Source: Nostoc sp. PCC 7120 = FACHB-418 (lineage in GTDB: Bacteria > Cyanobacteriota > Cyanobacteriia > Cyanobacteriales > Nostocaceae). From it: a stretch of DNA of 32,000 bases. The translations under genes and the position numbers were made by a program. The stretch covers positions 6,060,001-6,092,000 of the forward strand of contig NC_003272.1 in NCBI RefSeq assembly GCF_000009705.1, read 5' to 3'. Below, in pieces: positions 2,854-32,000 of the stretch. The notes under the pieces were generated by a model. It made no database searches. It was not told where the DNA came from and saw nothing but the letters and a program-made list of their open reading frames with translations. Within the stretch, counting starts at the first letter, position 1, and the number at the start of each line of letters is the position of its first letter.

Positions 2854-4005
2854 TTAAGCCCTAGCAGCACGATTGGAGGATAATTGGGCCTCTCCATAAA
2901 TATACTGCCCCAAGGCGTTCGCTTGTCTAGAAGGAGCAGCTAAGTGGGCGCTAATCTGGGCATCCTTAAGTAGACGTTGTACATCTTCCCAGAAAAATTC
3001 GCCACCACCACCAGTGATAATCACATCGGTGACACGTTCTGGCAACCAAGCCAACACACGACTGCAAATTTCTCGTGAAAATTGCTCTATCAAGTTGGGC
3101 AGAGAATCATCTAGATTTGTTGGTTTACTAGCACCTTTAGGACGATAAAAGCGTTCGCCTTTGGGTTTGTTGACAGCAGAAATTAAGGCCAAAGACTGAC
3201 TATCTGCACCATCAATTTCGGCAGCTACTAATTCATAGAACTTGTTCATGCCAAAATCTTCACTCTTAGAAGCACCGCGTGCAAAGCGGAAATTATCTAC
3301 CATCAATAAATCAATAGTTTGATGCCCAATATCAACAATTGCTGTGGAGATTTTTGTAAAATCGGGGCTAGCACCACCTTTTTTAGGTTGAGCTTCCGAC
3401 CAGAGAAGACTACCATAGCCTTCTGGCATTACCCAAACCTTGGTGATATTCAAAGATACAGATTCACCTCGAAAATTGAGAACATGAGGCCCGGTGACTT
3501 GGCTAGTTAACTGTGCTTTTTCCCTTTCAAATTGCTCCAACGAGAGAAAAGGTAGACCAAGTACAACAGAAATTTCATCTTTGAGTTTGAAGTAGCCAGC
3601 ACTAGCCAGTACCTTAATTAGTGCATCTTCTACTTTAGATTGACCGACTCCCAAATTAGCCCCAAAGTCTGCTGCTAATTGACCAACGGCATAGCCTTTG
3701 CCTTGATATTCCAACCACAAATCCATTAACGGGTCAGTAGCACGGGCTTCAAAAACGCCCCCGCGTACTTGTTCTATTGACATTTGCTTGACGTTGGCGG
3801 GTACGAACACAACGTTATTGGGTTCGCGTCCGACACAGGTTTTTGTGGAAGTTCTGCCTAAGTCAACACTGAGAATCGATTTGCTCGAACCATTATTTGG
3901 CTTGTTGTTGGCTGGAGCGGCATTGATTGGGGTAGATGCTGACACTCTGTTTAAAGGGATGGCAGCAGCATTCATTGGAGTAGCGGCGGAAGGTTGGTCT
4001 GTCAT
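2854..4005 (-). CDS. ParM/StbA-like actin-fold (ASKHA) ATPase
   Basis: 383-aa ORF with an ATG preceded by GAGGAA. Actin-fold nucleotide-binding motifs occur in the canonical order: phosphate-1 SVDLGRTSTK, phosphate-2 VDIGHQTIDL and adenosine motif VIITGGGGEFF. About 45 aa of Ala/Pro/Asn-rich low-complexity extension precedes the fold. Confidence 0.75.
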   Translation of the reverse strand: MTDQPSAATPMNAAAIPLNRVSASTPINAAPANNKPNNGSSKSILSVDLGRTSTKTCVGREPNNVVFVPANVKQMSIEQVRGGVFEARATDPLMDLWLEYQGKGYAVGQLAADFGANLGVGQSKVEDALIKVLASAGYFKLKDEISVVLGLPFLSLEQFEREKAQLTSQVTGPHVLNFRGESVSLNITKVWVMPEGYGSLLWSEAQPKKGGASPDFTKISTAIVDIGHQTIDLLMVDNFRFARGASKSEDFGMNKFYELVAAEIDGADSQSLALISAVNKPKGERFYRPKGASKPTNLDDSLPNLIEQFSREICSRVLAWLPERVTDVIITGGGGEFFWEDVQRLLKDAQISAHLAAPSRQANALGQYIYGEAQLSSNRAARA

Positions 4006-9025: not shown

Positions 9026-9140
9026 TTGGGGATTGGCTATTGGGGATTGGGTATTGGGTATTGGTTACTGGGTACTGGGGATTGGGGATGGAATTTATCC
9101 CCTGCTTCCCCTGCTTCCCCTGCTTCCTAGTCCCCAGTCC
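9026..9140. repeat. compound short tandem repeat: nine heptamers (TTGGGGA/TTGGGTA/CTGGGGA, complement of the STRR CCCCAGT type) followed by 3 x CCCCTGCTT and a terminal CCCCAGT unit
   Basis: Heptamer phase read directly at 9026-9088. The nonamer repeats lie at 9099-9125 and CCCCAGT at 9132-9138. The block fills the spacer between two co-directional minus-strand genes. Confidence 0.8.
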
Positions 9141-14300: not shown

Positions 14301-17100
14301 TTTCTGTTTGGGCGACTGTTTTATATTCAACTTGATTTTTTGGCGTTTGGCTACCTTCTACCAATTGAGTGACGCTGCTGTATTTTATCTGTTGCAATTC
14401 CAGTCGGACTCGTTGACCTGTGATTAGTTTTCCAGTAGGGTCAGCAATAATCACTTCAATGGGAAAAGCCTTACCTGCATCAGCAATAAAATTACTTTTT
14501 AAACCGATTAAACGATTACTTGGTAAAGCTGTAAAACTTTGAGAATTGGCTACAGAAAGATTAGAGACATCAGCAACTTGTACATCTACTCGATAAGTCA
14601 TAGGATATGGTAAATCTTTAGCCACATTTACCATTTGGCTACTTTTATCATTACCATCTAACTGAGAATTACTTTGCAATACATCACTAGATATAGTGGG
14701 GGCTTCTTCCGGCCAAAACCATTGGCGACCAAAAGTAAACTCTTCCCAACCTTTAGGGATAAAATTAGCTTGTTGACGAGTAATAAAATATTTCGCTTCT
14801 CCACCTTCTACAGGCGCACCAAATAAATAATTGCTTGTAGCATTAATATCAACATCATCGCCAATATAAGCAAACTCTTTATCTAGCTTGACTTCGACTT
14901 TAAAATTAGGTGGTTTGAACTCAGCCACCCGAAATTCTCCAGAAATTTCCAGACCATTCTTGCCTTTAGCTTGAATTGTGTAGTAGCCTAAGCCTTGAGT
15001 TTTATTGATGGGCATTTCTAAAGAAAATGTCCCAAACTCATTTGTAGTTTGTGTCCCTAAACTGGTCTTTTGTCCATCAGGATTTACCAACGTTATTTGG
15101 TAGTCAGCGTTTTTATCTTGCTGTATGACACCATTTTGTAAGTAATCAGCAAAACCAGTAAACCAAGCTTTTTCTCCTGATTGATACAACTGTCTATCTG
15201 AAAAAATTACTCCCCTTGATTCCGGTTTATTCCCTTGCCAACCTGCATCAATACCATATCCATAAACACCGCTATATTCTTCAGTTCTAGTAAATGCCCA
15301 ATCTTCCTTTTCACTGGCAATTACTAATAATTCTGGTGATTTAATAGAATTTTGACTACCAGCAGTGCATTGCTGTAATGCTTCACGATTAACTCTAAAA
15401 GTCCCATTTTCATCGGTTTTACCTGTCGCACAAGGTACAGGTTCAGGGCGAGATTTTGCTTGCAATTTTGATTGATAAATTTCTATAACAGCCGCTTTTA
15501 CTGGCGCACCATCTGTTAAATGATTCACCCGAATTAATCCCGATTCAGGAAACCATTGACTAAATACACCCAAATTAGTCAATTCCACCAAACCATAAGT
15601 CGTAGGTTCTCGCCACAACTCTTTACCATTTTCCTGATATTTATTAGTACGGGCTTGGACTCCATAAGCTAACATTCCCGTCTTAGCGTTGATTTTTTCT
15701 CGCAAAGGTACAGTTACATCAACTGACTGATTTTTCTTACCTGATACCTGGAAGCTTTTCCATTCAGCAGGTTTTGGTAATAAATCATTACCGTAGTTAA
15801 AATAAACCAAATCTGTTGGTTTAACTACTCGATAAGCAGCCTGATATTTAGATTCTGGTAAATTTACAGTACTAATATTTAACCGTAAATCTTTACCTGC
15901 GGGAAAAATATTCAAGTCTGAGGGAACCCAGATATCCCCTGCTAAATCTCCAGTATCATATTTAAGTGAAACAGGTTTACCTAAAGTCTGTCCAAACTTA
16001 TCTTGGAGATTTTCGCCGATAGTAATTGTATAAGTCTTAGCTGGTTCTAAGGCATAAGGATTAATCCCGATAATTCTATCTTCATCATTAACTTGTAAAA
16101 GTCGAGAAATATCTTTTGGTGCTGGGTTAATTTTAATATTGGTTTTAGCTGATTCAGCCACCAATATATTATTAAATTCTAACTGCGGACTACCTTTAAT
16201 AAATCTTCCATAAGTTCCCCCTGCATCTGGTTGTCCATAAAAGTTAATTTTTTGAAAAGCCAAAGGCGAATAAGTTGACAACTTACTAACAAATTCTCTA
16301 TCTGTAACTAGGTTGCCATAAGCAGGACGTATTCCCGGAGAGAATACTAAACGGTAACGAGTAGCTGTTTTCAGATTTTTTTGAGGTCTGAGATTATAAA
16401 TCCAATTACGTGCTGAAGGGTCAAATTTCTTGAGAGGTTCTTCCTTATCTAGAGGTTTTTCTTCCTTGTTTAAGGTTACTTGGAAACGCAAACCCTCATT
16501 TTTACCTTCTGGGATTAGCTGTAAATGTTCTTGTACAGAAGCTAAATCTAGTTCTACATTAGATGTAAATTGTAACTTTGGCTGTAAATCAATAGGTTCA
16601 GCATCAGCTTTCTCAATCGGATTCACACCGGGTAAATTTGTTAAATTGATAGATTGAGTATTAAAAGTCCAAGATAAATCTTTGTCTAAACGATGATTTT
16701 TTAAATCTGCTAAACCTGCTTTGAGAGTAACTTGTAATCTTGTGGCTATTGGCAATGCTTTATCAGCTTGAAAACCTACCATGCGCGGTGTCAAAAAACG
16801 AAATTGTCCCGGTAATGGCGGCCAAAGGGCAAACTTTTGTAATAACTGCTGTTGTTCTGGACTGTCTAGACTTTCAACTGGTATTAAAGCCTCTTTAAAA
16901 CGAATACGGATTTGGTTCAGAGGTTGGGCTTCTCCGATGGGACTAATTTGTTCAATCCAGTCCGGTAATTTTGGCGGTGTGAGTGGGGAAACTGCTGGTA
17001 ATGGTTCCCTACCTGAGTTGATACCAAAAAAATTACATCCCCCTATTCCTAACACCAACGTTAGAACAATAAAACACCGTATACAGACTCTAATAATCAT
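11380..17100 (-). CDS. bacterial alpha-2-macroglobulin family lipoprotein (YfhM/ECAM-like architecture, no CxEQ thioester motif)
   Basis: 1906-aa ORF. The N-terminal signal peptide has a lipobox-like LGIGGC. Macroglobulin-family hallmarks include LPDDLTTWRVMAVATD, FVRPGD, the TED-like ISDGGFAAFPG and the C-terminal DPLPAGLEAVD. The size matches bacterial A2Ms and the gene is divergent from pbpC. Cysteines occur only in the signal region, PVPCATG, QQCTAG and DFCKQQLCKR. Confidence 0.9.
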   Translation of the reverse strand: MIIRVCIRCFIVLTLVLGIGGCNFFGINSGREPLPAVSPLTPPKLPDWIEQISPIGEAQPLNQIRIRFKEALIPVESLDSPEQQQLLQKFALWPPLPGQFRFLTPRMVGFQADKALPIATRLQVTLKAGLADLKNHRLDKDLSWTFNTQSINLTNLPGVNPIEKADAEPIDLQPKLQFTSNVELDLASVQEHLQLIPEGKNEGLRFQVTLNKEEKPLDKEEPLKKFDPSARNWIYNLRPQKNLKTATRYRLVFSPGIRPAYGNLVTDREFVSKLSTYSPLAFQKINFYGQPDAGGTYGRFIKGSPQLEFNNILVAESAKTNIKINPAPKDISRLLQVNDEDRIIGINPYALEPAKTYTITIGENLQDKFGQTLGKPVSLKYDTGDLAGDIWVPSDLNIFPAGKDLRLNISTVNLPESKYQAAYRVVKPTDLVYFNYGNDLLPKPAEWKSFQVSGKKNQSVDVTVPLREKINAKTGMLAYGVQARTNKYQENGKELWREPTTYGLVELTNLGVFSQWFPESGLIRVNHLTDGAPVKAAVIEIYQSKLQAKSRPEPVPCATGKTDENGTFRVNREALQQCTAGSQNSIKSPELLVIASEKEDWAFTRTEEYSGVYGYGIDAGWQGNKPESRGVIFSDRQLYQSGEKAWFTGFADYLQNGVIQQDKNADYQITLVNPDGQKTSLGTQTTNEFGTFSLEMPINKTQGLGYYTIQAKGKNGLEISGEFRVAEFKPPNFKVEVKLDKEFAYIGDDVDINATSNYLFGAPVEGGEAKYFITRQQANFIPKGWEEFTFGRQWFWPEEAPTISSDVLQSNSQLDGNDKSSQMVNVAKDLPYPMTYRVDVQVADVSNLSVANSQSFTALPSNRLIGLKSNFIADAGKAFPIEVIIADPTGKLITGQRVRLELQQIKYSSVTQLVEGSQTPKNQVEYKTVAQTEITSTSNPQSVNLTPPESGTYRIRVNFSDAKNELGATDSQIWVTGGNAVFWGTRDKDVLEVKLDKKEYKAGETATALIQSPYADAELYFAVIKDKPIYQQITKVQGSAPQIQFRVTPEMLPNAAVEAVLVRQGKPINQVEVGSLDNLVKIGFTPFKVNLEDKYLKLQVKPAQASLEPGAEETIQLEVKDNQGNPTKGQLTVMVVNEAVLQLSGYRPPNLVDTVYAEQPISTRFTDNRPDVILQPQDVAKPKGWGYGGGFSTGAANTRTRTDFQPLAYYNGSVLTDASGNAQITVKLPDDLTTWRVMAVATDGNLRFGNGDATFITTKPLLSNAILPQFVRPGDRILAGLSVTNNTGNTGNLSINGEISGAVKFNSKNPTTTTLQTQAESATQAYRFPMVADSVGVGKVRFTTQLNGTADAFELPLQVKPLEITEQIVETGVSQKQIKIPLNVDKNTFPEAGGLDIQLASTLIPEIKAPAKQVLTDNDLPFTEPSASQLIIATNLQTIAQKYGQTFAEFNSRQQANLAVEKLQKLQISDGGFAAFPGQEKSDPWVSAYSVESLVKASQVFPNLVDTGMLSRLKTYLQKVLANPGEYDFCKQQLCKRQLQLNALIALSELGDKRNTFLTDIYEQRNNFDLVTQIKLARYLSQFPEWQDESQQLVNKLQQNISETGRTAVVSLPPSWGWMSSPTTAQAQALRLFIAKQSKPEIIDKLLQSLLALRRDGTWQTDYNNAQALTALVEYGQLQPTPPNFVATVQLAGRKLGENRFTGYKNPSLQLSVPMNQLPRGRHDLTLQKSGNGTLHYLVAYNYRLQGNQPGRFNGLRITREISQVNAKRILRKTGIYALDQPLTLALGQVFDIGLEIIVDRPVDHLVIKDPLPAGLEAVDASFQTTTAALQAKADSWELGFRNIYSDRIIAYADHLEPGVYSLHYLVRSVTPGTFSWPGAEVHLQYAPEEFGRTAEMKLIVEEKGR

Positions 17101-17380
17101 ATTTTTATAAATTTAAGATTAAAAATTACAGCAACTAGTCTCATCCCACCTCTCTTAAAATCTGCGCCCCTCCGCGCCAACCCCCACACTCCTTTGGATT
17201 TAAAAATCAAAATTTATTTACATAGATAACCAATCAAAAGCAGTAATTCCAAAAAACAACTACAATTCTTAACTATGAATTATTTTTAATTTTATTATTA
17301 AGGAATAGACATACTTACTGATGTAGATATCATCGCCACGGCAAAATTAAAGTAAATTCTCTTAAACAGGGTACTCCCTG

Positions 17381-19672
17381 ATGCAATTCATATCTCTATC
17401 GCTTACCAGAATGCGGCACACTAGTAAGGTGATCATAGCTGTGCTGCTAATATGCTTATTAATCCGCTTGATACCTTATTTTGCGCCGATTCGTGCTGTA
17501 GATATTGCCCAAAATCAACTAGCAATGCAATTTAGCGATCGCAATGGGCTACCATTAGGAACAATACTCACCCGTGACCAAGAGCATACATCAGTAGTAC
17601 CACTAAATCAGATTTCGCCCCAATTTATCCAAGCTATTTTAGCCGCCGAAGATGGTAGTTTTTATCATCATGGGGCTTTGGACTTGAAAGCAATTGTCCG
17701 CGCCATCAAAGAAGCTATCCACGCCAAAAAAATTGTTTCCGGCGCTTCCACGATTACCATGCAGTTAGCGCGGATGTTAGAACCAGTACCCCGCAACCTG
17801 TCAGGGAAAATGCAGGAGATTTGGTTAGCGTGGCGGTTAGCAGCCGGGATGAACAAGAATGAAATCCTCTCTGCATACATCAATCGCTTGCCCATGGGAG
17901 GGAATATATATGGTGTAGAAGCAGCAGCCCGTACTTATTTTTCCATCCCAGCCAGTGAATTAAATCTTGCCCAAGCTAGTTTGTTAGCTGCCATTCCTAA
18001 TAACCCCACCTACTTTAACCCTTACGAACATTGGGAACGACTGAAGCAACGACAAAAATACGTCCTCAATCGTATGGTACAAGAAGGGTATGTGAGCAAA
18101 GACACAGCATATCGCACATCCTCAGAAAAAGTTGTGTTTCAGTCCAACCAGCGAGGAATTATCGCCGCACCACACTTTTTATTTTGGTTAGCTAATCAAA
18201 TTCCCCCCACTCCTGCTGACACAAATCAATCAGTTATCCACACAACTATCAATCGTCCTTTGCAGCAATTTGTCGAAGCACAAGTACAGCAGGTAATTTC
18301 TACTCTTTCCGCCAATAACGTTCATGATGCAGCCGCACTAGTAATTGACAACCACACAGGGGAAGTTTTAGCTTACGTCGGTTCACCGGATTACTTTAAT
18401 CAAGCCCAACTGGGACGCAATGACGGAGTGCAAGCCCTACGTCAACCAGGTTCTACCCTGAAGCCATTTGTCTATGAATTAGCATTAGAAAAGCGGTTAA
18501 TTCGCCCAAATACTATTTTGGCAGATGTCCCGACCCATTACGCCATCCCCGGCGCACAACTCTACAGCCCAACGGATTATACCGAAAACTTTCTTGGGCC
18601 TGTGCGGGTACGCATCGCCTTAGCCAATTCCCTCAATATACCAGCCGTACGCGTCTTGGAAAAAGTGAGTGTACCAACTTTCCTAGAACGTCTACATCAA
18701 CTGGGATTTGTCCATCTAAAACAAACCCCAGAATACTATGGCTTAGGTTTAACCCTGGGTAGTGGTGAAGTTAGCCTCTGGGAACTAGCCCAAGCCTACC
18801 TGACTATAGCAAGACAAGGACAACCCGCCCCCCTCATTACCACCCTTCCCCAGTCTCCAGTCCCCCATCATACCCAACCCCCAAACCCCACCATCTGGCA
18901 ATTAATCACCAACATCCTCAGCGACAGCCATGCTCGTGCTACAGCCTTCGGTGTAGATTCAGTATTAAACTTACCATTCCCCGTGGCTGTGAAAACCGGT
19001 ACATCTTCCAACTATCGTGACACTTGGACAGTCGGCTTTACCACTGATTACACCGTCGCTACCTGGGTAGGTAACTTTAACGGTGAACCCATGCGTCAAG
19101 TTTCCGGGGTGACAGGCGCAGCACCCTTGTGGAATCGGATTATGTTACATCTGCACGAATATCAAGAACCAGCCAGTTTTCTCACTCCAGCAGGTTTATT
19201 GCAACTACCAATCTGTGCAGTTTCTGGGTTACGTCCCACACCAGACTGTACTTCAGTGGTGCAAGAATATTTCTATCCCGAAGATAAAACTAGCTACGAA
19301 AGGGACACTCAGTTTACATTACCACCAGAGTATAACGAGTGGTTAGCCACGCAACAGCGATCGCAGTTTACCTCTAGCAGCCTGAGAATTTTATCTCCTC
19401 ATGAAGGCGATGTATTCTTAGTGTATCCAGGTGAAGAAACACAACAAAAATTAGAATTTAAGTTAATAGGAAATAACTCTACACCTATAGAGTGGTGGCT
19501 CAACGGTGAAAAATTGAACACCCAGTCAGCTAATTCCTTATTTTGGTCGCTGCGTCCTGGTAACTGGACTTTAGAGGCGAGAAGCGGTGAAATGAGCGAT
19601 AAGGTAAAATTCCAGGTGAAACGGGCAAGTATTAAACCGACACGTAGGGGTTTCTCGATTGGTAATTCTTAA
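17381..19672 (+). CDS. pbpC: penicillin-binding protein 1C (bifunctional GT51 glycosyltransferase / transpeptidase)
   Basis: 763-aa ORF. GT51 motifs are EDGSFYHHGALD and GASTITMQLAR. Transpeptidase motifs are STLK (SxxK), SLN (SxN) and KTGTS (KTG). The C-terminal extension is typical of PBP1C, and the gene sits next to an alpha-2-macroglobulin gene. The start could alternatively be the Met at 17411. Confidence 0.9.
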   Translation: MQFISLSLTRMRHTSKVIIAVLLICLLIRLIPYFAPIRAVDIAQNQLAMQFSDRNGLPLGTILTRDQEHTSVVPLNQISPQFIQAILAAEDGSFYHHGALDLKAIVRAIKEAIHAKKIVSGASTITMQLARMLEPVPRNLSGKMQEIWLAWRLAAGMNKNEILSAYINRLPMGGNIYGVEAAARTYFSIPASELNLAQASLLAAIPNNPTYFNPYEHWERLKQRQKYVLNRMVQEGYVSKDTAYRTSSEKVVFQSNQRGIIAAPHFLFWLANQIPPTPADTNQSVIHTTINRPLQQFVEAQVQQVISTLSANNVHDAAALVIDNHTGEVLAYVGSPDYFNQAQLGRNDGVQALRQPGSTLKPFVYELALEKRLIRPNTILADVPTHYAIPGAQLYSPTDYTENFLGPVRVRIALANSLNIPAVRVLEKVSVPTFLERLHQLGFVHLKQTPEYYGLGLTLGSGEVSLWELAQAYLTIARQGQPAPLITTLPQSPVPHHTQPPNPTIWQLITNILSDSHARATAFGVDSVLNLPFPVAVKTGTSSNYRDTWTVGFTTDYTVATWVGNFNGEPMRQVSGVTGAAPLWNRIMLHLHEYQEPASFLTPAGLLQLPICAVSGLRPTPDCTSVVQEYFYPEDKTSYERDTQFTLPPEYNEWLATQQRSQFTSSSLRILSPHEGDVFLVYPGEETQQKLEFKLIGNNSTPIEWWLNGEKLNTQSANSLFWSLRPGNWTLEARSGEMSDKVKFQVKRASIKPTRRGFSIGNS

Positions 19673-22021: not shown

Positions 22022-22029
22022 GAAATCAA

Positions 22030-22046
22030 GGTGGGTAATGCCCACC
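22030..22046 (+). terminator. short GC hairpin (GGTGGG taatg CCCACC) just after the dapL stop
   Basis: Read directly, 9 nt after the stop codon. There is no immediate T-run (CATCTCTTAAAATTTT follows), so it is weak as an intrinsic terminator. Confidence 0.35.
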
Positions 22047-22133
22047 CATCTCTTAAAATTTTAGAATTAAGGACTGCCACATTCTTTTTTCAAATTGGTA
22101 CTATTTTGATTTGGTTAGAGTCATGACAAAGCA

Positions 22134-24623
22134 CTAAAGTTCACTTTTGGCAAGAGATGCACAGGTGAATGACGGTTGCACACCTGTAGGAGATTTAGCG
22201 GCAAAAAGCTCAATTTTTCCTTGGGCGTTACGATGCCAAGATGTAGCGTGGACAAAAACTTTTGGAGATTCAAGTATTTGGGCTTGTAAAGCTGGCGTTT
22301 TGTGGAATGCAGAGATATCGCGGATGTCAGACCAAGGGCGATCGCTCCTCACTTCCTGCATAGGATTTTGTGGGACACCACCCCGTCCTGTAGCGACAAA
22401 ACTACTATTATTAGTATTAGAACAGCCTGTAGCAATTTGTTGGGATGAGTCTGAGAGATTTGTTGGTAAATCTATTAAACCAGAATTAGGATCAATGCCA
22501 ACATTATTAATTTGGACTGTACCACTAACACTGAATTGGGAACTTGCGGTAATATCATTGCTCAAAACCTCTCTTGGATTGAGAAGATTACGGTACTCCA
22601 AACCGATAATTCCCTGAGTTGTGATTTGAATATTGCCCCCCTTTCCTTGTACGGCGTTGGCAATAATGTCACTATTTTCTAGACCAATCACAATGGGAGA
22701 GTTAATATTAATGTTGCCACCATTGCCATTACTACCTGCTTCGGCATTGATCAAGCTACCACGACGCATCAATAATACATCCCGCAGTTGCAGATTGATA
22801 TTGCCCCCCTCTCCAGCTTTTTTAGATGCTAGGATACTTGCATTATTGTCAAGTTTGAGGACGTTGGCATTAATTTGCAGAGTACCAGCCGTACCCAAAC
22901 CAGAATTTTCTACAAAAACCGTTGCCCCATTGGTAACATTCAAAACAGGAGTGTTTATGGTGGTGTTACCTGCATTAGCACGGGAAATTTGGGCAAATGT
23001 ACCAAAAGGACGCACAGCCGTACCGATATAGCTGGGATTGTTTGCATCCTTTACGCCATTTACATCAATCGATTCGGAAGCATTAATATTGAGTACACCA
23101 GCATTACCTAAAATTATGCTAGAAGCAGACACTCTCCCGCCAGCTTGCACTGACAATTTACGAGTATCAATCGCCAAATTTCCCGCATTACCAGACCCAA
23201 ATGTGGCAGTAGAGATGAGACTAAAATAAAAACCAGTGGGAGTTCCAGTGTTATTTACTTCAATAGTATCCGCCTTCACCGTCACATCACCCCCACTACC
23301 CACACCATAGGGTCTGGCTGCTATATTTCCCCCAGCTAAAACAGACAGCTTTTGAGTAGAGACAGAAATATTGCCGCCTTTCCCGCCTGCATAGGAAGCA
23401 GCTAATATTTGACTAACTGCTCGAAAGGCTGAAGGATCACCAACTGCAAAACCATTAACCCGCGTTTCATCGGTGTTGACGATAATATTGCCCCCTGATG
23501 CTGTGCTGAAAGTCCGGTTATAAATATAACCACCCTGATCAATATTCAATCGTGGAGTGTTAATGATAATATTCCCCGCCGCACCCAAGGCTGTACTTTC
23601 ATTCACTAAACTGCTAGAACTTTGAAAATCAGGCGACTTGCCAGTAATTTCTAAAAACTCTGAAGCATCAACAGCAATATCACCAGCTGTCTTTTGACTG
23701 CGATTTTGTACTAATATCATCGAGCCATCGCGGATACTGACTCGTTTTCCCTGGATATGGATGGCTCCTCCACTTTCCCCATTTAAATCCCGTGTCGATG
23801 CTAAGGCTCGTTGGGTGATTTGAATATTGCCAAAACTGGGAACTTGAGAATACTGGAAGGCAAATCCTTGCGGAGTAGAATTGAGAATCACATTGCCATT
23901 AGTCACACCACCCAATTCTATTAGTCCTCCTGGTGCAGAGAGCAGTCCGCCATCTAAGGCAATATCTTTGCCTAATAACGCTAGTGTTTTCCCTGGTTGT
24001 AGTTGTAATCCTCTGGAATTGAGATTTAGTCCAGAAACTTGCACTGAGTCACTTAATTGGGCATTATGTCCTGTACCTTGAACTGTAATCCCTCCTTGAT
24101 TACTACCAAATTGCAACCCAACAGGTACATTCATGGTTAACAAGGGGGATGTGTTGGTGTCTGTGCTACTAAATTTACTCCCATCCGCAAATGTAATAGT
24201 CTCAGCAGTTGTCCCGACAAATGATCCACCAATATTTAAACTGGCATGAGAACCAAAAATTATTCCTGTGGGGTTAAGTAAAAATAGATTGGCGCTGCCA
24301 TTAGTTTGAATCAAACCATCAATATTGGAAACATTACCACCAGTCACACGACTAAAAATATTTTGAATACTTGTAGGATTGTCAAATAATACAGAATCAC
24401 TTGTAGGGATAGAGAACTGACTAAAACTATGAAATAAATTATTGCCGACACGAGTACCGTTGGTAATGTTGTAAATATTACTTCCATTCACGGAAGTAGT
24501 GGCAGTAACAGAAGTATTGAGGGTATTATCTTGAGTTACTTGGGCATGAACACTATTGTTACAAACAGCAGATAAACAGATTACACTAAGCACGCCAAAC
24601 CCAACAAAAGTTAATTTCATCAA
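22134..24623 (-). CDS. TpsA-like exoprotein, paralog 1: filamentous-haemagglutinin N-terminal (TPS) domain, beta-helix repeats and a conserved C-terminal module
   Basis: 829 aa. The signal peptide ends in VHAQV. TPS-domain motifs are GNNLFHSFSQFSI and ANLFLLNPTGIIFG. Gly/Asn-rich repeats include GGNI.I and GNAGN. The C-terminal module is shared with the three neighbours. Confidence 0.88.
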   Translation of the reverse strand: MMKLTFVGFGVLSVICLSAVCNNSVHAQVTQDNTLNTSVTATTSVNGSNIYNITNGTRVGNNLFHSFSQFSIPTSDSVLFDNPTSIQNIFSRVTGGNVSNIDGLIQTNGSANLFLLNPTGIIFGSHASLNIGGSFVGTTAETITFADGSKFSSTDTNTSPLLTMNVPVGLQFGSNQGGITVQGTGHNAQLSDSVQVSGLNLNSRGLQLQPGKTLALLGKDIALDGGLLSAPGGLIELGGVTNGNVILNSTPQGFAFQYSQVPSFGNIQITQRALASTRDLNGESGGAIHIQGKRVSIRDGSMILVQNRSQKTAGDIAVDASEFLEITGKSPDFQSSSSLVNESTALGAAGNIIINTPRLNIDQGGYIYNRTFSTASGGNIIVNTDETRVNGFAVGDPSAFRAVSQILAASYAGGKGGNISVSTQKLSVLAGGNIAARPYGVGSGGDVTVKADTIEVNNTGTPTGFYFSLISTATFGSGNAGNLAIDTRKLSVQAGGRVSASSIILGNAGVLNINASESIDVNGVKDANNPSYIGTAVRPFGTFAQISRANAGNTTINTPVLNVTNGATVFVENSGLGTAGTLQINANVLKLDNNASILASKKAGEGGNINLQLRDVLLMRRGSLINAEAGSNGNGGNININSPIVIGLENSDIIANAVQGKGGNIQITTQGIIGLEYRNLLNPREVLSNDITASSQFSVSGTVQINNVGIDPNSGLIDLPTNLSDSSQQIATGCSNTNNSSFVATGRGGVPQNPMQEVRSDRPWSDIRDISAFHKTPALQAQILESPKVFVHATSWHRNAQGKIELFAAKSPTGVQPSFTCASLAKSEL

Positions 24624-24683
24624 TCAAGTTCTTGTTTTTATTACGTATCTATTGTTCCCAATTGAGTAAATTTGTAACGTTAA

Positions 24684-27161
24684 TTAATTTTCGGCTACAG
24701 CAGCACAGGTTAAGGCTGTTTGCATCTGCGAAGGGGATTTAGCTGCAACCAACTCTATTTTGCCTTGGGCATTACGTCGCCAGAAAGTAGCTTGTAAAAG
24801 GAATTTTGGGGATTTCGGTGTTTGGGCCTGTACTGGTTGTGTTGTATGGTATGCAGAGAGATCGCGGATATCAGACCAAGTGCGATCGCTCCTCAATTCC
24901 TGAGAAGGATTTTGTGGTATCCCACCCCGTCCTGTAGCGACAAAACTACTACCTTGGTTGACATCACAACCACTAGCAATTTGTTGAGATGAATCACTGA
25001 GATTTGCTGGTAGTTCAATTAAACCAGAATTGGGGTCAACACCAACATTATTAATTTCCACATTGCCGTTGAGATTGAATTGAGAACTGGCGGTAATATC
25101 ATTGGTGAGGTCATCTTTGGGGGTGAGGGTGTTACGAAATTCTAGACCAATAATGCCTTGGGTAGTGATGTCGATATTGCCACCATTTCCTTGCACTGCA
25201 TTGGCAATGATATCGCTATTTTCTAGACCAATCACATTGGGTGAGTTAATGTTAATGTTGCCACCATTGCCATTACTACCTGCTTCGGCATTGATAAAGC
25301 TACCTTGACGCATCAATAATACATCCCGCAGTTGTAGATTGATGTTACCGCCTTCCCCTGCTTTTGTAGATGCCGAAAGACTACCACCATTGTCAAGATG
25401 TAAGGTGTTTGCGTTAATTCTTAAAGTGCCGGCATCACCTAGAATCTGGTTTTGGGTAAAAACTTGTCCCTGGTTGCGAACGGTTAATTGAGGCGTATTG
25501 ATGGTGATATTACCGGCTTTGGCAGTAGAGTTGCTATTATTACTGATACCAGAAGTTGTAAACACAGTTAATGGACGGGCGATCGCTCCAATATAGCTAG
25601 GATTTTGTGGGTCTTTGATTCCATTTACATCAATTGATTCAGTGGCATTAATCGTCAGGTTGCCAGCGTTGCCAAAGTTTACAGTCGAAACTGAAACTAA
25701 ACCGCCATCTTGAATCGACAGTTTGCGCGTATTAAGCTGAAGATTGCCAGCATTCCCAGAGCCAAAAGTATTAGCTGATAACAGACTAATTAAATAAGAC
25801 CCTGGGAGGGTATTTAAGCTTGATATATCAACAGTGTCAGCACTGATTTTAACGTTGCCACCATTACCTGTAAGAAAGCTTCTCGTACCGACATTACCAC
25901 CACCAAAAATTGACAGGCGATCGCTAGAAAGCAATAAATCTCCACTTTGACCTTTACCATAAGTTGCAGCCATCAGCACGCCAAATATCGGATTAGCACT
26001 AGGATTCCCCGGTTGAATCCCACCCACTAAAACTTCATTGGCTTTAACTACGACATTACCACTGGGTGCTGAACTATAGGTACGGTTAATCATGATCGCA
26101 CCTCGATCAATGGTGAGTTTTGGGGTGATAATAGCAATATTTCCTGCTGCTCCTGCTTGCAGAGTTTCATTGACGATACCACTGGAACTTTGAAAGTTTG
26201 AGGACATACCTATCACTTGCAACGACTCTGTGGCATTGATTGTAATATCACCCGCAGTCTGGCTACCGAGATTTTGTACTACCACCAAAGAACCGTCTTG
26301 AAGACTGATTTGTTTTCCCTGAACTTGTATTGCGCCTGGAATGATGCCACGCACAGATGCTATAGCACGTCGGCTCATTTGAATATCACCAAAGCTATAG
26401 TTGTCACGAGGATAGCTCAGGGTGAATGCTGAAGAATCGACATTGATATTGACATCGCCTTGATTGACGCTTCCCAGTTCAATGCGTCCTCCTGGTGCGG
26501 ACAGAAAGCTCCCATTGAGGACAAGATTACCACCAACCAAAGCTAGTGTTTTTCCAGATGATAGCTGTAACCCATCGGTACTGGTTAATCCCGAAATCGG
26601 AGATATACCATTTAATATGTGATTGTTTCCTGTTCCCTCAACAGAAATAGTTCCTGGATTGCCGCCAAACTGTAATCCGATTGGGACACTCATAGTCAAT
26701 AAAGGAGTTGTATTGGTTTTAACTCCGCTAAATTCTGTCCCATCAGCAAACTTAATACTATTGGCTGTTGTACCAATAAACGAACCACCAATATTCAAAC
26801 TGGCATCTTTACCAAATATGATTCCACTAGGGTTGAGTAAAAATAAATTTGCAGTACCGTTAGCTTGAATTAAACCATCAATGTTGGAAACACTACCACC
26901 AGTCACACGGCTAAAAATATTTTGGATATCTGGGGCATTGTCGAAGAGTGCAGAACCTTTACTGGGAATAGAAAATTGACTGAAACTGTGAAACAGATTG
27001 TTCCCGACGCGATTCCCATTGATAATGGTGAAATCATTACCACTTTGAGAGACTTCAGTGTTGAGAGTGCTGTCAGGAATGACTTGGGCATTAACACTGC
27101 TGCAAGTTGAACATATTAAGATTCCGCCAATTAAACCAAAGCAACCAGAAGTTACTTTCAT
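24684..27161 (-). CDS. TpsA-like exoprotein, paralog 2
   Basis: 825 aa. The signal peptide ends in VNAQV. Motifs GNNLFHSFSQFSI and ANLFLLNPSGIIFG are present, with beta-helix repeats and the conserved C-terminal module (AGEGGNINLQLRDVLLMR ... GRGGIPQNP ... TCAAV). Confidence 0.88.
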   Translation of the reverse strand: MKVTSGCFGLIGGILICSTCSSVNAQVIPDSTLNTEVSQSGNDFTIINGNRVGNNLFHSFSQFSIPSKGSALFDNAPDIQNIFSRVTGGSVSNIDGLIQANGTANLFLLNPSGIIFGKDASLNIGGSFIGTTANSIKFADGTEFSGVKTNTTPLLTMSVPIGLQFGGNPGTISVEGTGNNHILNGISPISGLTSTDGLQLSSGKTLALVGGNLVLNGSFLSAPGGRIELGSVNQGDVNINVDSSAFTLSYPRDNYSFGDIQMSRRAIASVRGIIPGAIQVQGKQISLQDGSLVVVQNLGSQTAGDITINATESLQVIGMSSNFQSSSGIVNETLQAGAAGNIAIITPKLTIDRGAIMINRTYSSAPSGNVVVKANEVLVGGIQPGNPSANPIFGVLMAATYGKGQSGDLLLSSDRLSIFGGGNVGTRSFLTGNGGNVKISADTVDISSLNTLPGSYLISLLSANTFGSGNAGNLQLNTRKLSIQDGGLVSVSTVNFGNAGNLTINATESIDVNGIKDPQNPSYIGAIARPLTVFTTSGISNNSNSTAKAGNITINTPQLTVRNQGQVFTQNQILGDAGTLRINANTLHLDNGGSLSASTKAGEGGNINLQLRDVLLMRQGSFINAEAGSNGNGGNININSPNVIGLENSDIIANAVQGNGGNIDITTQGIIGLEFRNTLTPKDDLTNDITASSQFNLNGNVEINNVGVDPNSGLIELPANLSDSSQQIASGCDVNQGSSFVATGRGGIPQNPSQELRSDRTWSDIRDLSAYHTTQPVQAQTPKSPKFLLQATFWRRNAQGKIELVAAKSPSQMQTALTCAAVAEN

Positions 27162-27241
27162 TACCCCAACTCCATTAAAATTGTAGCCTTAGGATGCCCT
27201 GAATATTTTTTTACTAACGCTTCAAGTGAACTGCTTAAAAC

Positions 27242-29689
27242 TTAACTTTGAGACACCGCAGCACAGGTTAATAGTTGTTGCACCTGAGCAGAAGATTTAT
27301 CTGCAACTATCTCAATTTTGCCGTCAGTATTGCGATGCCAAGATGTAGCTTGCACAAGAGTTTGTGGAGGTGTTGGTATTTGGGCCTTGACTTCGTTGAT
27401 TTTCCTATATGCAGAGATATCGCGGATGTCTGACCAAGTGCGATCGCTCCTCACTTCCAGAGTAGGATTTTGCGGCACACCACCCCGTCCTGTAGCTACA
27501 AAACTACTATTATTAGCATTAGAACAGCCTGTAGCAATTTGTTGGGATGGATCGGTGACATTGGCGGGTAGTTCTACTAAACCTGAATTGGGATCAACAC
27601 CAACATTATTAACTTGTACTGTGCCATTCACCCCAAACTGTGAACTGGCAGTAATATCGTTTTCTGGTGTCAGTTGGGGGCGAAACTTCAGGCCAAAAAT
27701 ACCTTGAGTTGTAATTTGAATGTTACCACCGCGACCTGTGACTGCATTAGCCATAATATCACTGTTGTTAAATCCGACAATAACTGGCGAATTAATCATA
27801 ATATTGCCACCATCTCCTGAACCTAAAGCTGTTCCTATAATCAAACTCTGATCTCGAAGAATGAGCGCGTTTGTGTGGATATTCATATCACCACCTTGTC
27901 CTGAAGCTGTAAAACTCGCTAAAAACCCCTTATTTAACTCCACCATTTCAGTATTGATGTTCAGTGCGCCTGCATTCCCAATTCCATAGTTACCAGTATT
28001 AATTCTGGCTTCGTCACTAATTTTGAGGATAGGAGTATTGACAGTTACCTGTCCGGAAGAGCCTCTGGGAATTTCGCTCACATTTGATAATTGGGTATAA
28101 TAATTAGCCGTCAAAGAGCCAACAGTTGAAGAAATATTACTACCATAGGGAACACTTGGTGATCGACCACTTATATTAATGGATTCCGTCGCATTGACAG
28201 TCAAATCACCGGCATTACCTACTCCAAGACTGGCAGTAGTTACACTACCGCTTTCCTTGATTGTGAGTGTGCGAGTATTTAGTCTCAGTTTTCCAGCATT
28301 ACCACCACGTCCAATAGTAGTGTTAGAAATAATACTAGGAATACTGATGGGCGTTGCTCCAATGACATTTACATGAGCGGCATCAATTGTAACTGTACCA
28401 CTCGTACCAAGTCCAAAAGTTGTGGAGCCGAGATAACCACCATCCAACACAGATAAATTCTGTGTTGCGACTATCACATCACCAGCTTTCCCTGTAGAGA
28501 ATGTGAGTGTTCCAATTGCTGCATAGACTGAAGGGTCGGTAGAAATGTAACCATTGACATTCAAATTAGAGGTTGTGATGTTGATATAACCACTATCGGC
28601 AGATTTATAATTACGGTTAGCAACTACCGCACCGTTGTTAACACTTAAATTTGGTGTGACAACGCTAATATTACCACTCCTACCACTGCTGACGGCCTCG
28701 TTGATTATGCTGGTACGGATTTTCAAGTCAGTAGTCGCACCAGATAATTTCAGAGTATCAGAGGCGAACACATAAATATCTCCACCCTTTTGAATTCCTC
28801 GGTTCTGCACCCATAATACAGAGCCATCTGTGAGGCTAACTGTGCGACCTTGTACTTGAATAGAACCTGCATTGATACCATTGACATTCACAAGCGATCG
28901 CTCTGTAAAATCAATATCACCAAATGTAGAAGTTTTTTGATAATCCAGGTTAAATCCTTGACTGACTCTATTGAGTGTAACTTCACCTTCAGTTACACCA
29001 CCGAGTTCAACTCGTCCCTGGGGAGCAAACAAAATCCCACCATTCAGGTCAATAGAAGAACCCACAAGTGCTAATGTACGTCCCGATTTCACGGCCAAAT
29101 TAGTCTCTAATACTGTAGGAACATAGGGTGTGATCAGTGGATTTTGAGAGGTCAGATGATGTCCAGTTCCTTGTAAGGCAATCTTTCCTGAGTTTTGACC
29201 AAGCTGTAAGCCTATTGGTACACTCATAGTTAACAATGGCGACTGACTGAGCTTCGTTGCACTAAATTCTGTTCCATCAGCAAATTTAATAGTATTGGCA
29301 GTTGTGGCGACAAAAGAACCACCAATACTCAAACTGGTATTTTTGCCAAAAATAATCCCAGCAGGGTTGATTAAAAACAAGTTGGCATTACCCTTAGCAC
29401 TAATTTCACCATCAATGTGAGAAATATTGCCACCAGTCACCCGACTAAAAATGTTTTGAATATCAGTAGCATTGTCAAATGATACAGAACTACCTGGGGG
29501 AATAGAGAACTGACTAAAGCTATGAAATAAATTGTTGCCGACCTGAATGCCGTTTGTAATGCTGTAATTACTATCCACAACAGTGCCAAGGGTGTTATCA
29601 GAAGTTACTTGTGCATAAACACCATTGTTATTAACAGCAGATAAACAAATTGCACTCAGTATAACAAAGCCAACAAAAGCGAATTTCAT
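27242..29689 (-). CDS. TpsA-like exoprotein, paralog 3
   Basis: 815 aa. The signal peptide ends in VYAQV. Motifs GNNLFHSFSQFSI and ANLFLINPAGIIFG are present, with beta-helix repeats and the C-terminal module (GRGGVPQNP, WSDIRDIS, TSWHRN, TCAAV). Confidence 0.88.
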   Translation of the reverse strand: MKFAFVGFVILSAICLSAVNNNGVYAQVTSDNTLGTVVDSNYSITNGIQVGNNLFHSFSQFSIPPGSSVSFDNATDIQNIFSRVTGGNISHIDGEISAKGNANLFLINPAGIIFGKNTSLSIGGSFVATTANTIKFADGTEFSATKLSQSPLLTMSVPIGLQLGQNSGKIALQGTGHHLTSQNPLITPYVPTVLETNLAVKSGRTLALVGSSIDLNGGILFAPQGRVELGGVTEGEVTLNRVSQGFNLDYQKTSTFGDIDFTERSLVNVNGINAGSIQVQGRTVSLTDGSVLWVQNRGIQKGGDIYVFASDTLKLSGATTDLKIRTSIINEAVSSGRSGNISVVTPNLSVNNGAVVANRNYKSADSGYINITTSNLNVNGYISTDPSVYAAIGTLTFSTGKAGDVIVATQNLSVLDGGYLGSTTFGLGTSGTVTIDAAHVNVIGATPISIPSIISNTTIGRGGNAGKLRLNTRTLTIKESGSVTTASLGVGNAGDLTVNATESINISGRSPSVPYGSNISSTVGSLTANYYTQLSNVSEIPRGSSGQVTVNTPILKISDEARINTGNYGIGNAGALNINTEMVELNKGFLASFTASGQGGDMNIHTNALILRDQSLIIGTALGSGDGGNIMINSPVIVGFNNSDIMANAVTGRGGNIQITTQGIFGLKFRPQLTPENDITASSQFGVNGTVQVNNVGVDPNSGLVELPANVTDPSQQIATGCSNANNSSFVATGRGGVPQNPTLEVRSDRTWSDIRDISAYRKINEVKAQIPTPPQTLVQATSWHRNTDGKIEIVADKSSAQVQQLLTCAAVSQS

Positions 29690-29741
29690 TAGTCTAGTTC
29701 TTGTTTCTATTACGTATATATTATTCCCAGCTTAGTAAACT

Positions 29742-32000
29742 TTACAACATTAATTTATTTTGAGGTACAGATGCACAGGTTAAGGCTGTTTGTACCTGAG
29801 TCGGAGATTGATTGGCAGTTAATTCAATTTTGCCGTTAGCATTACGTCGCCAGGAATTAGCTTGCAGCAGTAATTCTGGAGATTTTGGTGTTTGTGCTTG
29901 TACTTGTACTAATTCTGTTTTGTGGAATGCAGAGATATCGCGGATGTCTGACCAAGTGCGATCGCTCCTCATTTCCTGCATAGGATTTTGTGGCACACCA
30001 CCCTTGCCTGTGGCAACAAAGCTACTACCAGTATTATTAGAACAACCACTAGCGATTTGTTGAGATGGGTCGGTGAGATTTTCTGATAATTCTACTAACC
30101 CAGAATTTGGATCGACACCAATATTATTTATTTGCACAGTGCCATTGACATTGAATTGGGAACTAGCAGTAATGTCATTTGTCAAAACTTCTCTAGGATT
30201 GAGAAGATTGCGATACTGCAACCCAATGATTCCCTGAGTTGCAATATGAATATTACCGCCCCTTCCTTGGACGGCATTGGCAATAACATCACTGTTTTCT
30301 AAACCGACAATATTTGGGGCTGTAATTTTAATATTACCGCCATTACCAACTGCCTCTGCACTGATGAAACTGCCATTACGCATCAGTAAGACATCGCGCA
30401 CTTGCAGATCAATATTACCTCCTTCGCCTGCATTGGCTTCAGAACGAAGTTTGCTAGCTAGATCCAACTTCAAATAATTAGCCTGAATGAGCATATTGCC
30501 GGCATTTCCTGTGCCTTTGCCGCTAACTACAATTTCGGTGCGATCGCTAAGACTCAAATCTTTTGTCGTTACATATACGGAACCCGCAACACCAGGGCCT
30601 GTAGAGGAGGCATACAACCCACTTGGGCCAGTAGCATCCAGAGAGTAAAGCAGTTGCCCACTTGGTACTTGACTCACACCTGCAATATTGATGGAATTGG
30701 CTTGAATAGCAATATTTCCGGCTTTACCATAGGTTTCAGTTGAGGTGGAAATTCGCCCTCCGTCCAGTAAGTTGAGCTTACCAACATTAAAAGTAATGTC
30801 GCCACCTTGTCCCTGACCCAGACTAATCAGTTTGTCAGTAGAGAAATCGTAGTTACCATTTGTTGATGCGAAAAATCGTGTGGCAACTCCAGTTGACGAA
30901 CTGCCACCCAAAATTACTTCGTCAGCATTAACAATAATGTTACCTGATGTACCTTCACCATAAGTACCAGTCCGAATACCAGGGCCGTTTAAGACCTCTA
31001 GTTTACCGACATTGAGAATTATATCTCCACCCCTACCTGTGGCAAATTCACGGATACTGGTACTCATCCCCGTCAAAAATGCAGGTTCACCTGTTGCAGT
31101 TTCACCTGTCACACTTAAGTTCTTGGCTGTGACAATAATATTGCCACCATCACCAGTTCCTCTAGCAGTAGCGCGTAATTCACCACCGTCCCGAATATTG
31201 ACTTGGGTGGCATCAATCGTGACATTACCACCTCGACCTTGGGAACCATTCATCGTATTAGATGCTAGTGTACTGACGCTAAATCGCTGCTTTGTCGGCG
31301 CATGGATGGCTTCCCCAATCACATTAACAGTTGTAGCTTTAACTGTAATATTGCCGGAATCTCCAATTCCATTGGTACGGGTGTTAATTTGTGCGCCATT
31401 TAAAACACTAAGAAGAGGTGTTTCAATTGTTATATCACCACCCCGTCCCCTAGCTGTTGGTTGAGAGTGAGTAGCAATTGCAGTGTTAGAAAGGGATGAG
31501 CGACCAATAAGTTCAAGGGATTCAGAGGCTTTGACTAGAATACCTTGTCCTGAACTTGTGCCTAAAGTGTGGGAAGTGATAGTTGAAGAACCAGACAAAG
31601 TTATTTTTTGCCCATGGAGAGCGATCGCCCCACCTTGGTTTCCACTGGTATCAACCTTGGCTACATTGCTAAAGTTAATATCTTGGAACTGAGCCACAGT
31701 ATTGAAATCTAAGCTGAATCCAGTAGTGTTTGCAGACAGTCCCACAATATTATTTGCTGCAACGCTCCCTAATTCAACTCTGCCATCGGTAGCAGTAATT
31801 GTACTCTGGTCAAAAGTTAAGTTATTTCCTACTAGTGCAAATGTGTTTCTCGCGGGAATTGCTAATTTTGACCCATAAACGTTAATTGAACTGGGACTGC
31901 TGCCCATTTGCAAACCAATCGGCACGCTCAAGGTGAGTAAAGCTGAATCCAGTGGACTTGTAGCACTAAACTTAAATCCATCAGCAAATTTAATACTTTC
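29742..32000 (-). CDS. TpsA-like exoprotein, paralog 4 (5' end lies beyond the window edge)
   Basis: The reading frame stays open to position 32000. The bases upstream of the ORF-track start translate to ESIKFADGFKFSATSPLDSALLT. The ORF-track Met at 31931 is a TTG inside the motif LSVPIGLQ, which aligns at about residue 160 of paralogs 1-3. The gene is therefore N-terminally truncated by the window and is longer than its neighbours. Confidence 0.85.
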   Translation of the reverse strand, partial: ESIKFADGFKFSATSPLDSALLTLSVPIGLQMGSSPSSINVYGSKLAIPARNTFALVGNNLTFDQSTITATDGRVELGSVAANNIVGLSANTTGFSLDFNTVAQFQDINFSNVAKVDTSGNQGGAIALHGQKITLSGSSTITSHTLGTSSGQGILVKASESLELIGRSSLSNTAIATHSQPTARGRGGDITIETPLLSVLNGAQINTRTNGIGDSGNITVKATTVNVIGEAIHAPTKQRFSVSTLASNTMNGSQGRGGNVTIDATQVNIRDGGELRATARGTGDGGNIIVTAKNLSVTGETATGEPAFLTGMSTSIREFATGRGGDIILNVGKLEVLNGPGIRTGTYGEGTSGNIIVNADEVILGGSSSTGVATRFFASTNGNYDFSTDKLISLGQGQGGDITFNVGKLNLLDGGRISTSTETYGKAGNIAIQANSINIAGVSQVPSGQLLYSLDATGPSGLYASSTGPGVAGSVYVTTKDLSLSDRTEIVVSGKGTGNAGNMLIQANYLKLDLASKLRSEANAGEGGNIDLQVRDVLLMRNGSFISAEAVGNGGNIKITAPNIVGLENSDVIANAVQGRGGNIHIATQGIIGLQYRNLLNPREVLTNDITASSQFNVNGTVQINNIGVDPNSGLVELSENLTDPSQQIASGCSNNTGSSFVATGKGGVPQNPMQEMRSDRTWSDIRDISAFHKTELVQVQAQTPKSPELLLQANSWRRNANGKIELTANQSPTQVQTALTCASVPQNKLML

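Follow-up and report, generated by a model that had tools for sequence, protein, structure and literature searches.

Nine tpsA paralogs behind one tpsB gene in Nostoc sp. PCC 7120: a known two-partner secretion locus with cysteine-pair tails, J-Box-like elements and divergent central modules

Background

Two-partner (type Vb) secretion loci in their canonical form are pairs of a tpsB transporter gene and a tpsA passenger gene, and several described systems of this kind, namely HMW1/HMW1B of Haemophilus influenzae, FhaB/FhaC of Bordetella, HxuA/HxuB, EtpA/EtpB and the CdiB-CdiA-CdiI loci of contact-dependent inhibition (CDI), can be compared with the locus considered here. Part of it occupies positions 22134-32000, on the minus strand, of a stretch of 32,000 nucleotides of Nostoc (Anabaena) sp. 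PCC 7120 (contig NC_003272.1, positions 6,060,001 to 6,092,000; hereafter the window), which contains genes six to nine of an array of nine tpsA paralogs (A1-A9) headed by a single tpsB.

HMW1 is a beta-helix TpsA whose TPS domain is of the same structural class as that of the array proteins (PDB 2odl), and it likewise has a pair of cysteines near its C-terminus. This pair reportedly tethers the adhesin to its transporter. HMW1 differs, however, in that the pair lies within the last 20 residues, whereas here the two cysteines stand about 87 residues apart within a conserved module of 120 aa; moreover, its transporter serves a single substrate, a glycosyltransferase partner is present and sequence similarity to the array proteins is confined to the TPS domain. 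In Bordetella, FhaC serves FhaS in addition to FhaB and so provides an example of one TpsB for more than one TpsA, and the TPS fold (1rwr) is shared. A C-terminal segment of FhaB is retained in the periplasm and removed by proteases. FhaB differs in its length of about 3600 aa, its Fil_haemagg repeats and its unrelated prodomain, and two substrates stand against nine. The best sequence and structure matches are to HxuA/HxuB and EtpA/EtpB, HxuA having a beta-helix of similar size (about 900 aa); these are, however, single-substrate loci with unrelated C-terminal regions, and no heme, hemopexin or flagellin context is seen here. CDI loci share the TpsB and the TPS-domain passenger, but their toxin tip varies and they include immunity genes, whereas the array has a conserved tip and no room for such genes.

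Among cyanobacteria, All5116, whose gene forms an operon with those of several hemagglutinin-like proteins, has been given as an example of a transporter with multiple copies of its substrate, and six substrates (All5110-All5115) were listed, with no functional data at the time (Arnold, Zeth & Linke 2010, PMC2878562). This published all5116 (tpsB2)/tpsA cluster of Anabaena PCC 7120 is the same locus as the present array, although the 2010 list of six contrasts with nine intact genes now, and the old locus tags do not correspond one-to-one to the nine current genes. The gene tpsB2 (all5116) is reported to lie beside about 11 annotated TpsA-like open reading frames (ORFs) and is said to be transcribed independently of them. 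The two TpsB proteins of the strain were the subject of a study in J Bacteriol 203 (Ngo et al. 2021); according to the summary of that study in the supplement of PMC10811720, tpsB mutants form normal heterocysts, grow less well without combined nitrogen and show altered antibiotic sensitivity, and substrates have been proposed. Full-text literature searches for all5105-all5116 gave no functional study of the passengers. The array is therefore an already known locus of a known kind, and tandem arrays are routine in filamentous cyanobacteria. An original prediction, made from the letters of the window alone, had regarded the array as undescribed, which does not hold in view of PMC2878562 and of the frequency of such arrays in cyanobacteria; its statement that these TpsA proteins have no characterised function agrees with the literature.

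Composition of the locus

Extension of the window upstream through public contigs (L001 and L083) shows that the full locus consists of tpsB and, on the same strand, nine tpsA genes, all with intact reading frames, which encode proteins of 913, 917, 816, 832, 961, 885, 815, 825 and 828 aa from A1 to A9. The gap between tpsB and A1 measures 176 bp and the successive gaps from A1 to A9 are 62, 66, 94, 88, 91, 52, 80 and 63 bp. Between the window and the PCC 7120-lineage contig RSCN01000014.1 (GCA_003990585.1) only 1 base differs in 14759. The tpsB product (588 aa) is of the ShlB/FhaC type, with Pfam matches to ShlB (7.6e-33) and POTRA_2 (3.2e-24) and an Omp85 domain, and it carries the loop-6 motif VRGY at 481, FIDIG at 520 and a C-terminal Phe. 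Since a cognate tpsB heads the array, the locus amounts to one transporter with many substrates and is an expanded form of the canonical tpsB-tpsA pair. The original prediction, which found the layout to fit no TPS pattern, has to be corrected to tpsB-(tpsA)9. It had also suggested a look beyond position 32000 for tpsB, CHAT or other partners; tpsB was found there and a CHAT gene was not, although the suggestion of CHAT proves apt for the family at large (see below).

With respect to the window itself, ORF calls bore out the four consecutive minus-strand ORFs with the predicted lengths and the spacers of 60, 80 and 52 bp. The fourth ORF (A6), expected to be cut by the window edge, remains open through the window end, its start codon and signal peptide lying outside; the full contig gives a gene of 885 aa. 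Internal stops are absent from all array copies in the window and all reading frames are open, as anticipated for intact passengers of a filamentous cyanobacterium. A terminator-like GC-rich hairpin with a T-rich tail lies 3' of A9 and faces the convergent aminotransferase gene, and a terminator scan found no such site in any inter-paralog spacer. No RNA element was detected inside the array by Rfam, tRNA or terminator scans. Export of all nine passengers by the one TpsB, possibly shared with the second TpsB of the strain, can be proposed with high confidence, and the POTRA domains would recognise the common TPS domain.

Domains and fold of the TpsA proteins

The three complete window proteins match the Pfam TPS domain (PF05860) with E-values of 1.6e-66, 1.7e-68 and 1.5e-72 and scores well above the gathering threshold; they also match TIGR01901, and the truncated A6 product matches PF05860 with an E-value of 2.5e-21. 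The characteristic motifs (GNNLFHSFSQFS and LFL(L/I)NPxGIIFG) are present, and in LNPxGI the residues N, P, G and I do not vary among the nine paralogs. Sec-type signal peptides, judged by reading of the sequences, occur in all nine, where a K/R n-region and a hydrophobic core lead to a junction between A and QV that is likewise invariant. The signal peptides and TPS motifs predicted for the first three paralogs are hence well founded. The Fil_haemagg part of the suggested search with hidden Markov models (HMMs) fared differently, as neither Fil_haemagg nor Fil_haemagg_2 repeats were matched, and at E <= 0.01 Pfam gives the TPS domain alone for all four window proteins.

In an AlphaFold2 (AF2) model of A7, built from an alignment of 86 sequences, the mean predicted local distance difference test (pLDDT) score is 81, with 476 of the 815 residues at 90 or above, and a continuous beta-helix extends over residues ~30-695. 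When this model was compared with the PDB using Foldseek, the top matches were EtpA, HxuA, HMW1, FHA and HpmA, all of them TpsA proteins, at a probability of 1.00, and a profile search of PDB sequences detected the TPS domains of HxuA, EtpA and HMW1 alone. Overall, the nine paralogs share 43-56% identity. Broken down by region, pairwise identity is 68% for the TPS core but falls to 32% for the central helix, which also shows large insertions and deletions between paralogs; the last rungs reach 63% and the final ~135 columns 67%. The passenger can thus be described as a right-handed beta-helix of about 650 residues that lacks cysteines and has a centre that diverges strongly between paralogs, and the model of A7 together with the paralog alignment supports the predicted beta-helix and shared C-terminal module. 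We take the array proteins to be beta-helix proteins that are displayed at the surface or secreted, their tails probably serving for tethering or processing. With moderate confidence, the cysteine-free helices may be regarded as the exported surface parts and the variable centres as alternative surface or binding modules.

The TPS domain and TpsB form the same secretion chassis as in CdiBAI, and a contact-dependent inhibition or cytolysin locus with orphan toxin modules might be imagined on these grounds. The distribution of conservation is, however, the reverse of that in a polymorphic toxin, the C-terminus being strongly conserved (67% against 32% for the centre). The proteins are only 815-961 aa long and show no FHA repeat, pretoxin or toxin domain in Pfam. 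With 52-94 bp between consecutive tpsA genes, immunity genes cannot be accommodated, and neither an immunity-like ORF nor an RNA family match was found in the array. We consider such a toxin locus very improbable and have excluded it on account of the conserved C-terminus and the lack of space for immunity genes.

A conserved tail with two cysteines

The last ~120 aa form a conserved tail which has no Pfam family and carries both cysteines of the mature protein. The mature form of each of the nine paralogs contains two cysteines and no more; both belong to the tail and are separated by 87-89 residues. This pattern extends to the family, since 135 of 144 members from 79 cyanobacterial loci have a passenger free of cysteine and a pair of cysteines within the final 135 residues, at a spacing of 81-119 residues. 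Across orders the tail follows the consensus SDITASS..G..GTV.IN....DP.SGLVELP.N..D.S.QIA.GC.....S.F..TGRGGLP.NP...L.....W.D.R, then a variable linker, EATGW..N..G.VELVA and a final C; the basic/Gly motifs TGRGG.P.NP and RSDR are invariant. At E <= 1e-3, a profile of the four window tails matched 3952 representative clusters (clusters at 50% identity), the match falling in every case on the very C-terminal end, and all seven of the long matches examined have an N-terminal TPS domain and no further domain. No match to the tail was obtained in Pfam, NCBIfam or PDB sequences, apart from a sub-threshold hit to Neocarzinostatin (E 0.007, below its cutoff).

By analogy with the known systems, the cysteine pair may form a disulfide loop in the periplasm that would be too bulky for the pore. 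As such a loop could not cross the pore, the tail would either be a stopper that tethers the helix at the cell surface in the manner of HMW1 or, on the model of FhaB, a pro-segment to be cut away, and the chances of these two roles appear about even. A tail of the second kind leads to a further possibility, in which it serves as a periplasmic pro-segment or intramolecular chaperone, to be cut by a CHAT-type protease encoded elsewhere in PCC 7120 or by a Deg/Ctp protease, the helices being shed to the sheath, the exopolysaccharide or the medium. The invariant basic/Gly motifs, the FhaB precedent and the changed envelope properties that the PMC10811720 summary reports for tpsB mutants speak for such released exoproteins, as do the CHAT genes described in the next section; the cleavage site is, however, only hypothetical.

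Family distribution and CHAT neighbours

With one paralog as the query, more than 7000 close homologues were detected, whose annotations vary between S-layer family, filamentous hemagglutinin N-terminal domain and two-partner secretion domain protein. The architecture of N-terminal TPS domain and C-terminal tail was seen in 79 loci from genomes of Nostocales, Oscillatoriales, Pleurocapsales, Spirulina and Leptolyngbya-like and Pseudanabaena-like cyanobacteria. Tandem arrays of 2-6 or more tpsA are common among the loci compared, and arrays headed by tpsB are found in Nodularia (6 tpsA), Nostoc P2090 (5), Calothrix (4) and Crinalium (3).

In 35 of 80 loci a CHAT-domain gene is found within 10 kb, and in 29 of the 80 it directly adjoins a tpsA, usually right after the last one. 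The adjacent proteins examined are either TPR-CHAT or CHAT-CHASE2 proteins, and those of the TPR-CHAT kind have signal-peptide-like N-termini. In other cyanobacteria, an exported TPR-CHAT protease encoded next to tpsA could be responsible for removing the tail. The Nostocaceae arrays with J-Boxes, including that of PCC 7120, have no adjacent CHAT gene, and this absence counts against released exoproteins at the present locus. We regard their release as unlikely.

Promoter-like elements upstream of the tpsA genes

The sequence GGGnAnnnT occurs 38-43 nt 5' of the ATG in nine of nine tpsA genes of the locus, the tpsB-A1 spacer included. A TGTTA box is located ~16 nt further 5', and the two are kept as a pair across Nostocales arrays and are missing before tpsB; the consensus from 39 spacers is tgTta-N16-GGGAAyyaTAaaT. 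The same element at the same distance is seen in arrays of Nodularia, Nostoc, Tolypothrix, Calothrix, Rivularia and Anabaena cylindrica. Counted over Nostocales loci, it precedes 45 of 83 tpsA, 0 of 9 tpsB and 3 of 227 other ORFs, and it is not present in the arrays outside Nostocales. In Nostoc punctiforme, the J-Box GGGaAtacT has been described as the extended -10 element of promoters that depend on SigJ (PMC6495340), and the tpsA boxes fit this consensus. When sigJ was overexpressed in Anabaena 7120, all5113, an ORF of the array locus, was up 2.07 +/- 1.01-fold. From the sequence pattern, each tpsA may be transcribed from its own SigJ-type promoter, not only as part of an operon, and separately from tpsB, a proposal that we consider to have roughly a half chance of being right. 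Such promoters would link the array to a SigJ envelope, desiccation or hormogonium-like programme.

Two further observations concern the same spacers and starts. The A3-A4 spacer, outside the window, contains a direct duplication of ~27 bp (TTGTGGGAAACCTAAG[T/C]ATAAAGTTG) that yields two J-Box-like copies. In addition, a FurC (PerR) box was predicted 122 nt upstream of all5105 (PMC10406281). It maps within codons ~39-44 of A8, from which it follows that A8 is probably all5105 and that the old annotation began the gene at an internal GTG. The site is therefore probably an artefact of an N-terminally shortened annotation and not regulatory.

Exchange of central modules

For A1-A4, A6 and A7, relatives in other genera are 77-88% identical, as against 43-60% among paralogs of the same genome, and the gene order differs between arrays. 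The tpsA genes are mosaics whose regions have diverged unequally, as seen on comparing the composite PCC 7120 locus (L083/L001) with the loci of Nodularia (L004), Nostoc P2090 (L007) and N. parmelioides (L005). The centres of A3 and A2 share 90-96% nucleotide identity with those of Nodularia or Nostoc P2090 (synonymous divergence, dS, ~0.15), while the ends of these genes that encode the TPS domain and the tail are 67-83% identical (dS 0.3-0.6). Across the three compared loci, centres at this 90-96% level have dS of about 0.15-0.26, against 0.5-1.2 for the conserved ends and the neighbouring tpsB. Overall, inter-genus dS is 0.15-0.5 for centres, 0.3-1.7 for ends and 1.0-1.2 for tpsB. In six of the nine paralogs (A1, A2, A3, A4, A8 and A9) the centre points to another best match than does the N- or C-terminal end. 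For most paralogs, the best centre match reaches 76-93% and the second-best only ~30-60%, and this steep fall indicates that the centres are largely discrete types. Omega is 0.13-0.33 in all regions, pointing to purifying selection.

A related genome, GCA_014696735.1 (L084), is 99.2% identical to L083 over 18.5 kb of flank and colinear with it to 436 nt into A6. The breakpoint lies in the TPS-coding part of A6, and beyond it L084 carries other paralogs, of 795 and 819 aa where L083 has 885 and 815 aa. The contigs with an identical aminotransferase gene showed the same A6-A9 layout only, and no further strain variants. Judging from these comparisons, recombination in the conserved ends may have moved and reshuffled the central modules, also between genera, giving rise to the mosaic genes, and the centres would be kept as discrete conserved types while being exchanged between arrays.

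Discrete central types exchanged across genera, array content that differs between strains as close as 99.2%, a promoter-like box before each tpsA and the fact that alr1906, a different TpsA of the same strain, is the site of the sole mutation in a phage-resistant substrain could together suggest a variable surface repertoire, that is, alternative coats with their own promoters that are only partly expressed and diversified under pressure from phages, grazers or kin recognition. The orthologous centres, however, are under purifying and not diversifying selection (omega 0.15-0.32); invertible elements, silent cassettes and recent gene conversion are absent (paralogs at most 76% identical in nucleotides); and the nine promoter boxes are all alike. 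We therefore find a coat repertoire of this kind quite improbable. For a heteromeric fibre, a further conceivable arrangement, the comparisons speak neither way.

The amplification could also be decaying or redundant, its members being pseudogenes or products of recent duplication that have no function of their own, and split genes in some public copies (L085 and L002) might be cited in favour of this. The splits in tpsB and tpsA of these copies are, however, short N runs in metagenome-derived scaffolds of the Joint Genome Institute (JGI) and not frameshifts, and the nine intact frames, the closer resemblance of paralogs to their counterparts in other genera than to one another and the omega values all speak for functional genes. 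This explanation has next to no chance of being correct. Pseudogenes were ruled out by the intact frames, the origin of the splits and the purifying selection, and recent amplification or concerted evolution by the highest nucleotide identity of any paralog pair in the genome, 76%, which likewise implies that there was no recent gene conversion.

Overall interpretation

Taken as a whole, the best explanation is a type Vb locus of the form tpsB-(tpsA)9, whose passengers are exported by TpsB, with a disulfide-bonded tail that would act as a stopper or pro-segment, SigJ promoters for the individual genes and exchangeable centres; we estimate a probability of about 60% for this explanation in its entirety.

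Several points weigh against it. If every tethered TpsA occupied one TpsB, nine substrates would require a tight stoichiometry. The cysteines are ~87 residues apart, compared to 20 or fewer in HMW1. Despite its high conservation, the A7 tail has a pLDDT below 50 in the AF2 model and hence no fold, which makes a fold search on the tail meaningless. No CHAT gene is present among the genes of the PCC 7120 locus. The literature searched, including that on Anabaena exoproteomes and hemagglutinins, contains no exoproteome report of array proteins, a result that is equally unfavourable to released exoproteins. The induction of all5113 by sigJ is marginal, and other ORFs of the array are not in the same table. 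Finally, in hormogonium RNA-seq of N. punctiforme, the few 'filamentous hemagglutinin' genes among those listed, which may or may not belong to the present subfamily, are flat or repressed.

A wider reading would join these features and suppose that type Vb secretion has a distinct branch in cyanobacteria, of which the arrays would be the Nostocaceae form. This branch would be marked by a conserved, disulfide-locked tail on thousands of TpsA proteins, a dedicated exported TPR-CHAT (caspase-like) protease as partner in many lineages, SigJ (group-3 sigma factor) promoters for individual genes in Nostocales and discrete centres exchanged between genera through recombination in the conserved ends for export and anchoring. 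In this joint form the proposal is rather doubtful and is put forward tentatively. If it were true, a single transporter would display reshufflable surface modules within a stress or motility envelope programme.

Feature coordinates and neighbouring genes

The coordinates of the array features, together with those of other elements of the window and of compared loci, are collected in the table below. On the 5' side, tpsB is preceded by a zinc alcohol dehydrogenase gene and glycosyltransferase genes. On the 3' side of A9 lie genes for a convergent aminotransferase, GT2, PBP1C and a bacterial alpha-2-macroglobulin (A2M). The A2M gene is divergent from the PBP1C-type gene, in the usual periplasmic A2M-PbpC pairing, and this pair is two genes away from the array. 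Further away in the window are a chromosomal gene for an actin-like protein, followed by a short ORF without a family match, and intergenic heptamer and nonamer repeats of the short tandemly repeated repetitive (STRR) kind, which are common in heterocystous cyanobacteria.

Table 1. Positions of tpsA genes, tails, promoter-like elements and other features; numbers refer to the window unless a locus is named
Feature	Position	Strand	Remarks
tpsA A9	22134-24623	minus	terminal array gene; 829 aa from TTG 24623, 828 aa from ATG 24620 (public records)
tpsA A8	24684-27161	minus	825 aa; ORF and Pfam/TIGR01901 matches
tpsA A7	27242-29689	minus	815 aa; signal peptide 1-26, TPS domain ~26-278, beta-helix to ~695, tail 698-815
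tpsA A6	29742-32000	minus	3' 752 codons of 885-aa gene, sixth of nine
A7 tail	27245-27598	minus	aa 698-815; C722 and C809 are the only Cys of the mature protein
A8 tail	~24687-25040	minus	equivalent by sequence comparison
A9 tail	~22137-22490	minus	equivalent by sequence comparison
A6 tail	~29745-30107	minus	equivalent by sequence comparison
J-Box-like GGGAATAAT	29720-29728	minus	52-bp A6-A7 spacer, 39 nt 5' of A7 ATG
J-Box-like GGGCATCCT	27191-27199	minus	80-bp A7-A8 spacer, 38 nt 5' of A8 ATG
J-Box-like GGGAACAAT	24651-24659	minus	A8-A9 spacer, 39 nt 5' of A9 ATG
A3-A4 spacer	L083 12452-12545		outside the window; contains the ~27-bp duplication
Strain breakpoint in A6	L083 ~18546		just upstream of window 32000
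Predicted FurC box	27029-27047		within A8
Terminator-like hairpin	22029-22047	minus	3' of A9
A2M and PBP1C-type genes	11380-19672		A2M 1906 aa, minus strand; PBP1C-type 763 aa
Actin-like protein gene	2854-4005	minus	Pfam ALP_N and MreB-like_C
162-aa ORF	2360-2848	minus	follows the actin-like gene
Intergenic tandem repeats	595-635; 9026-9086; 9098-9127		heptamers AGTCAAC (x5.9) and TTGGGTA (x8.7), nonamer TCCCCTGCT (x3.3)
CHAT gene	L018 11775-14429		example; with the four below and 24 more loci
CHAT gene	L024 12222-15014		example
CHAT gene	L028 11754-14444		example
CHAT gene	L027 12413-15031		example
CHAT gene	L033 15019-17598		example

Conclusions

The array is a published and ordinary multi-substrate TPS locus, and is thus no discovery in itself. 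The family to which it belongs is nevertheless very large, its passengers are without an assigned function, and the cysteine-pair tail, the J-Boxes, the linkage to CHAT genes and the cassette-like centres are features that can be tested in the tractable strain PCC 7120. Such features could reveal the role of cyanobacterial TPS systems, be it in envelope integrity, adhesion or the sheath, desiccation or the interaction with phages.

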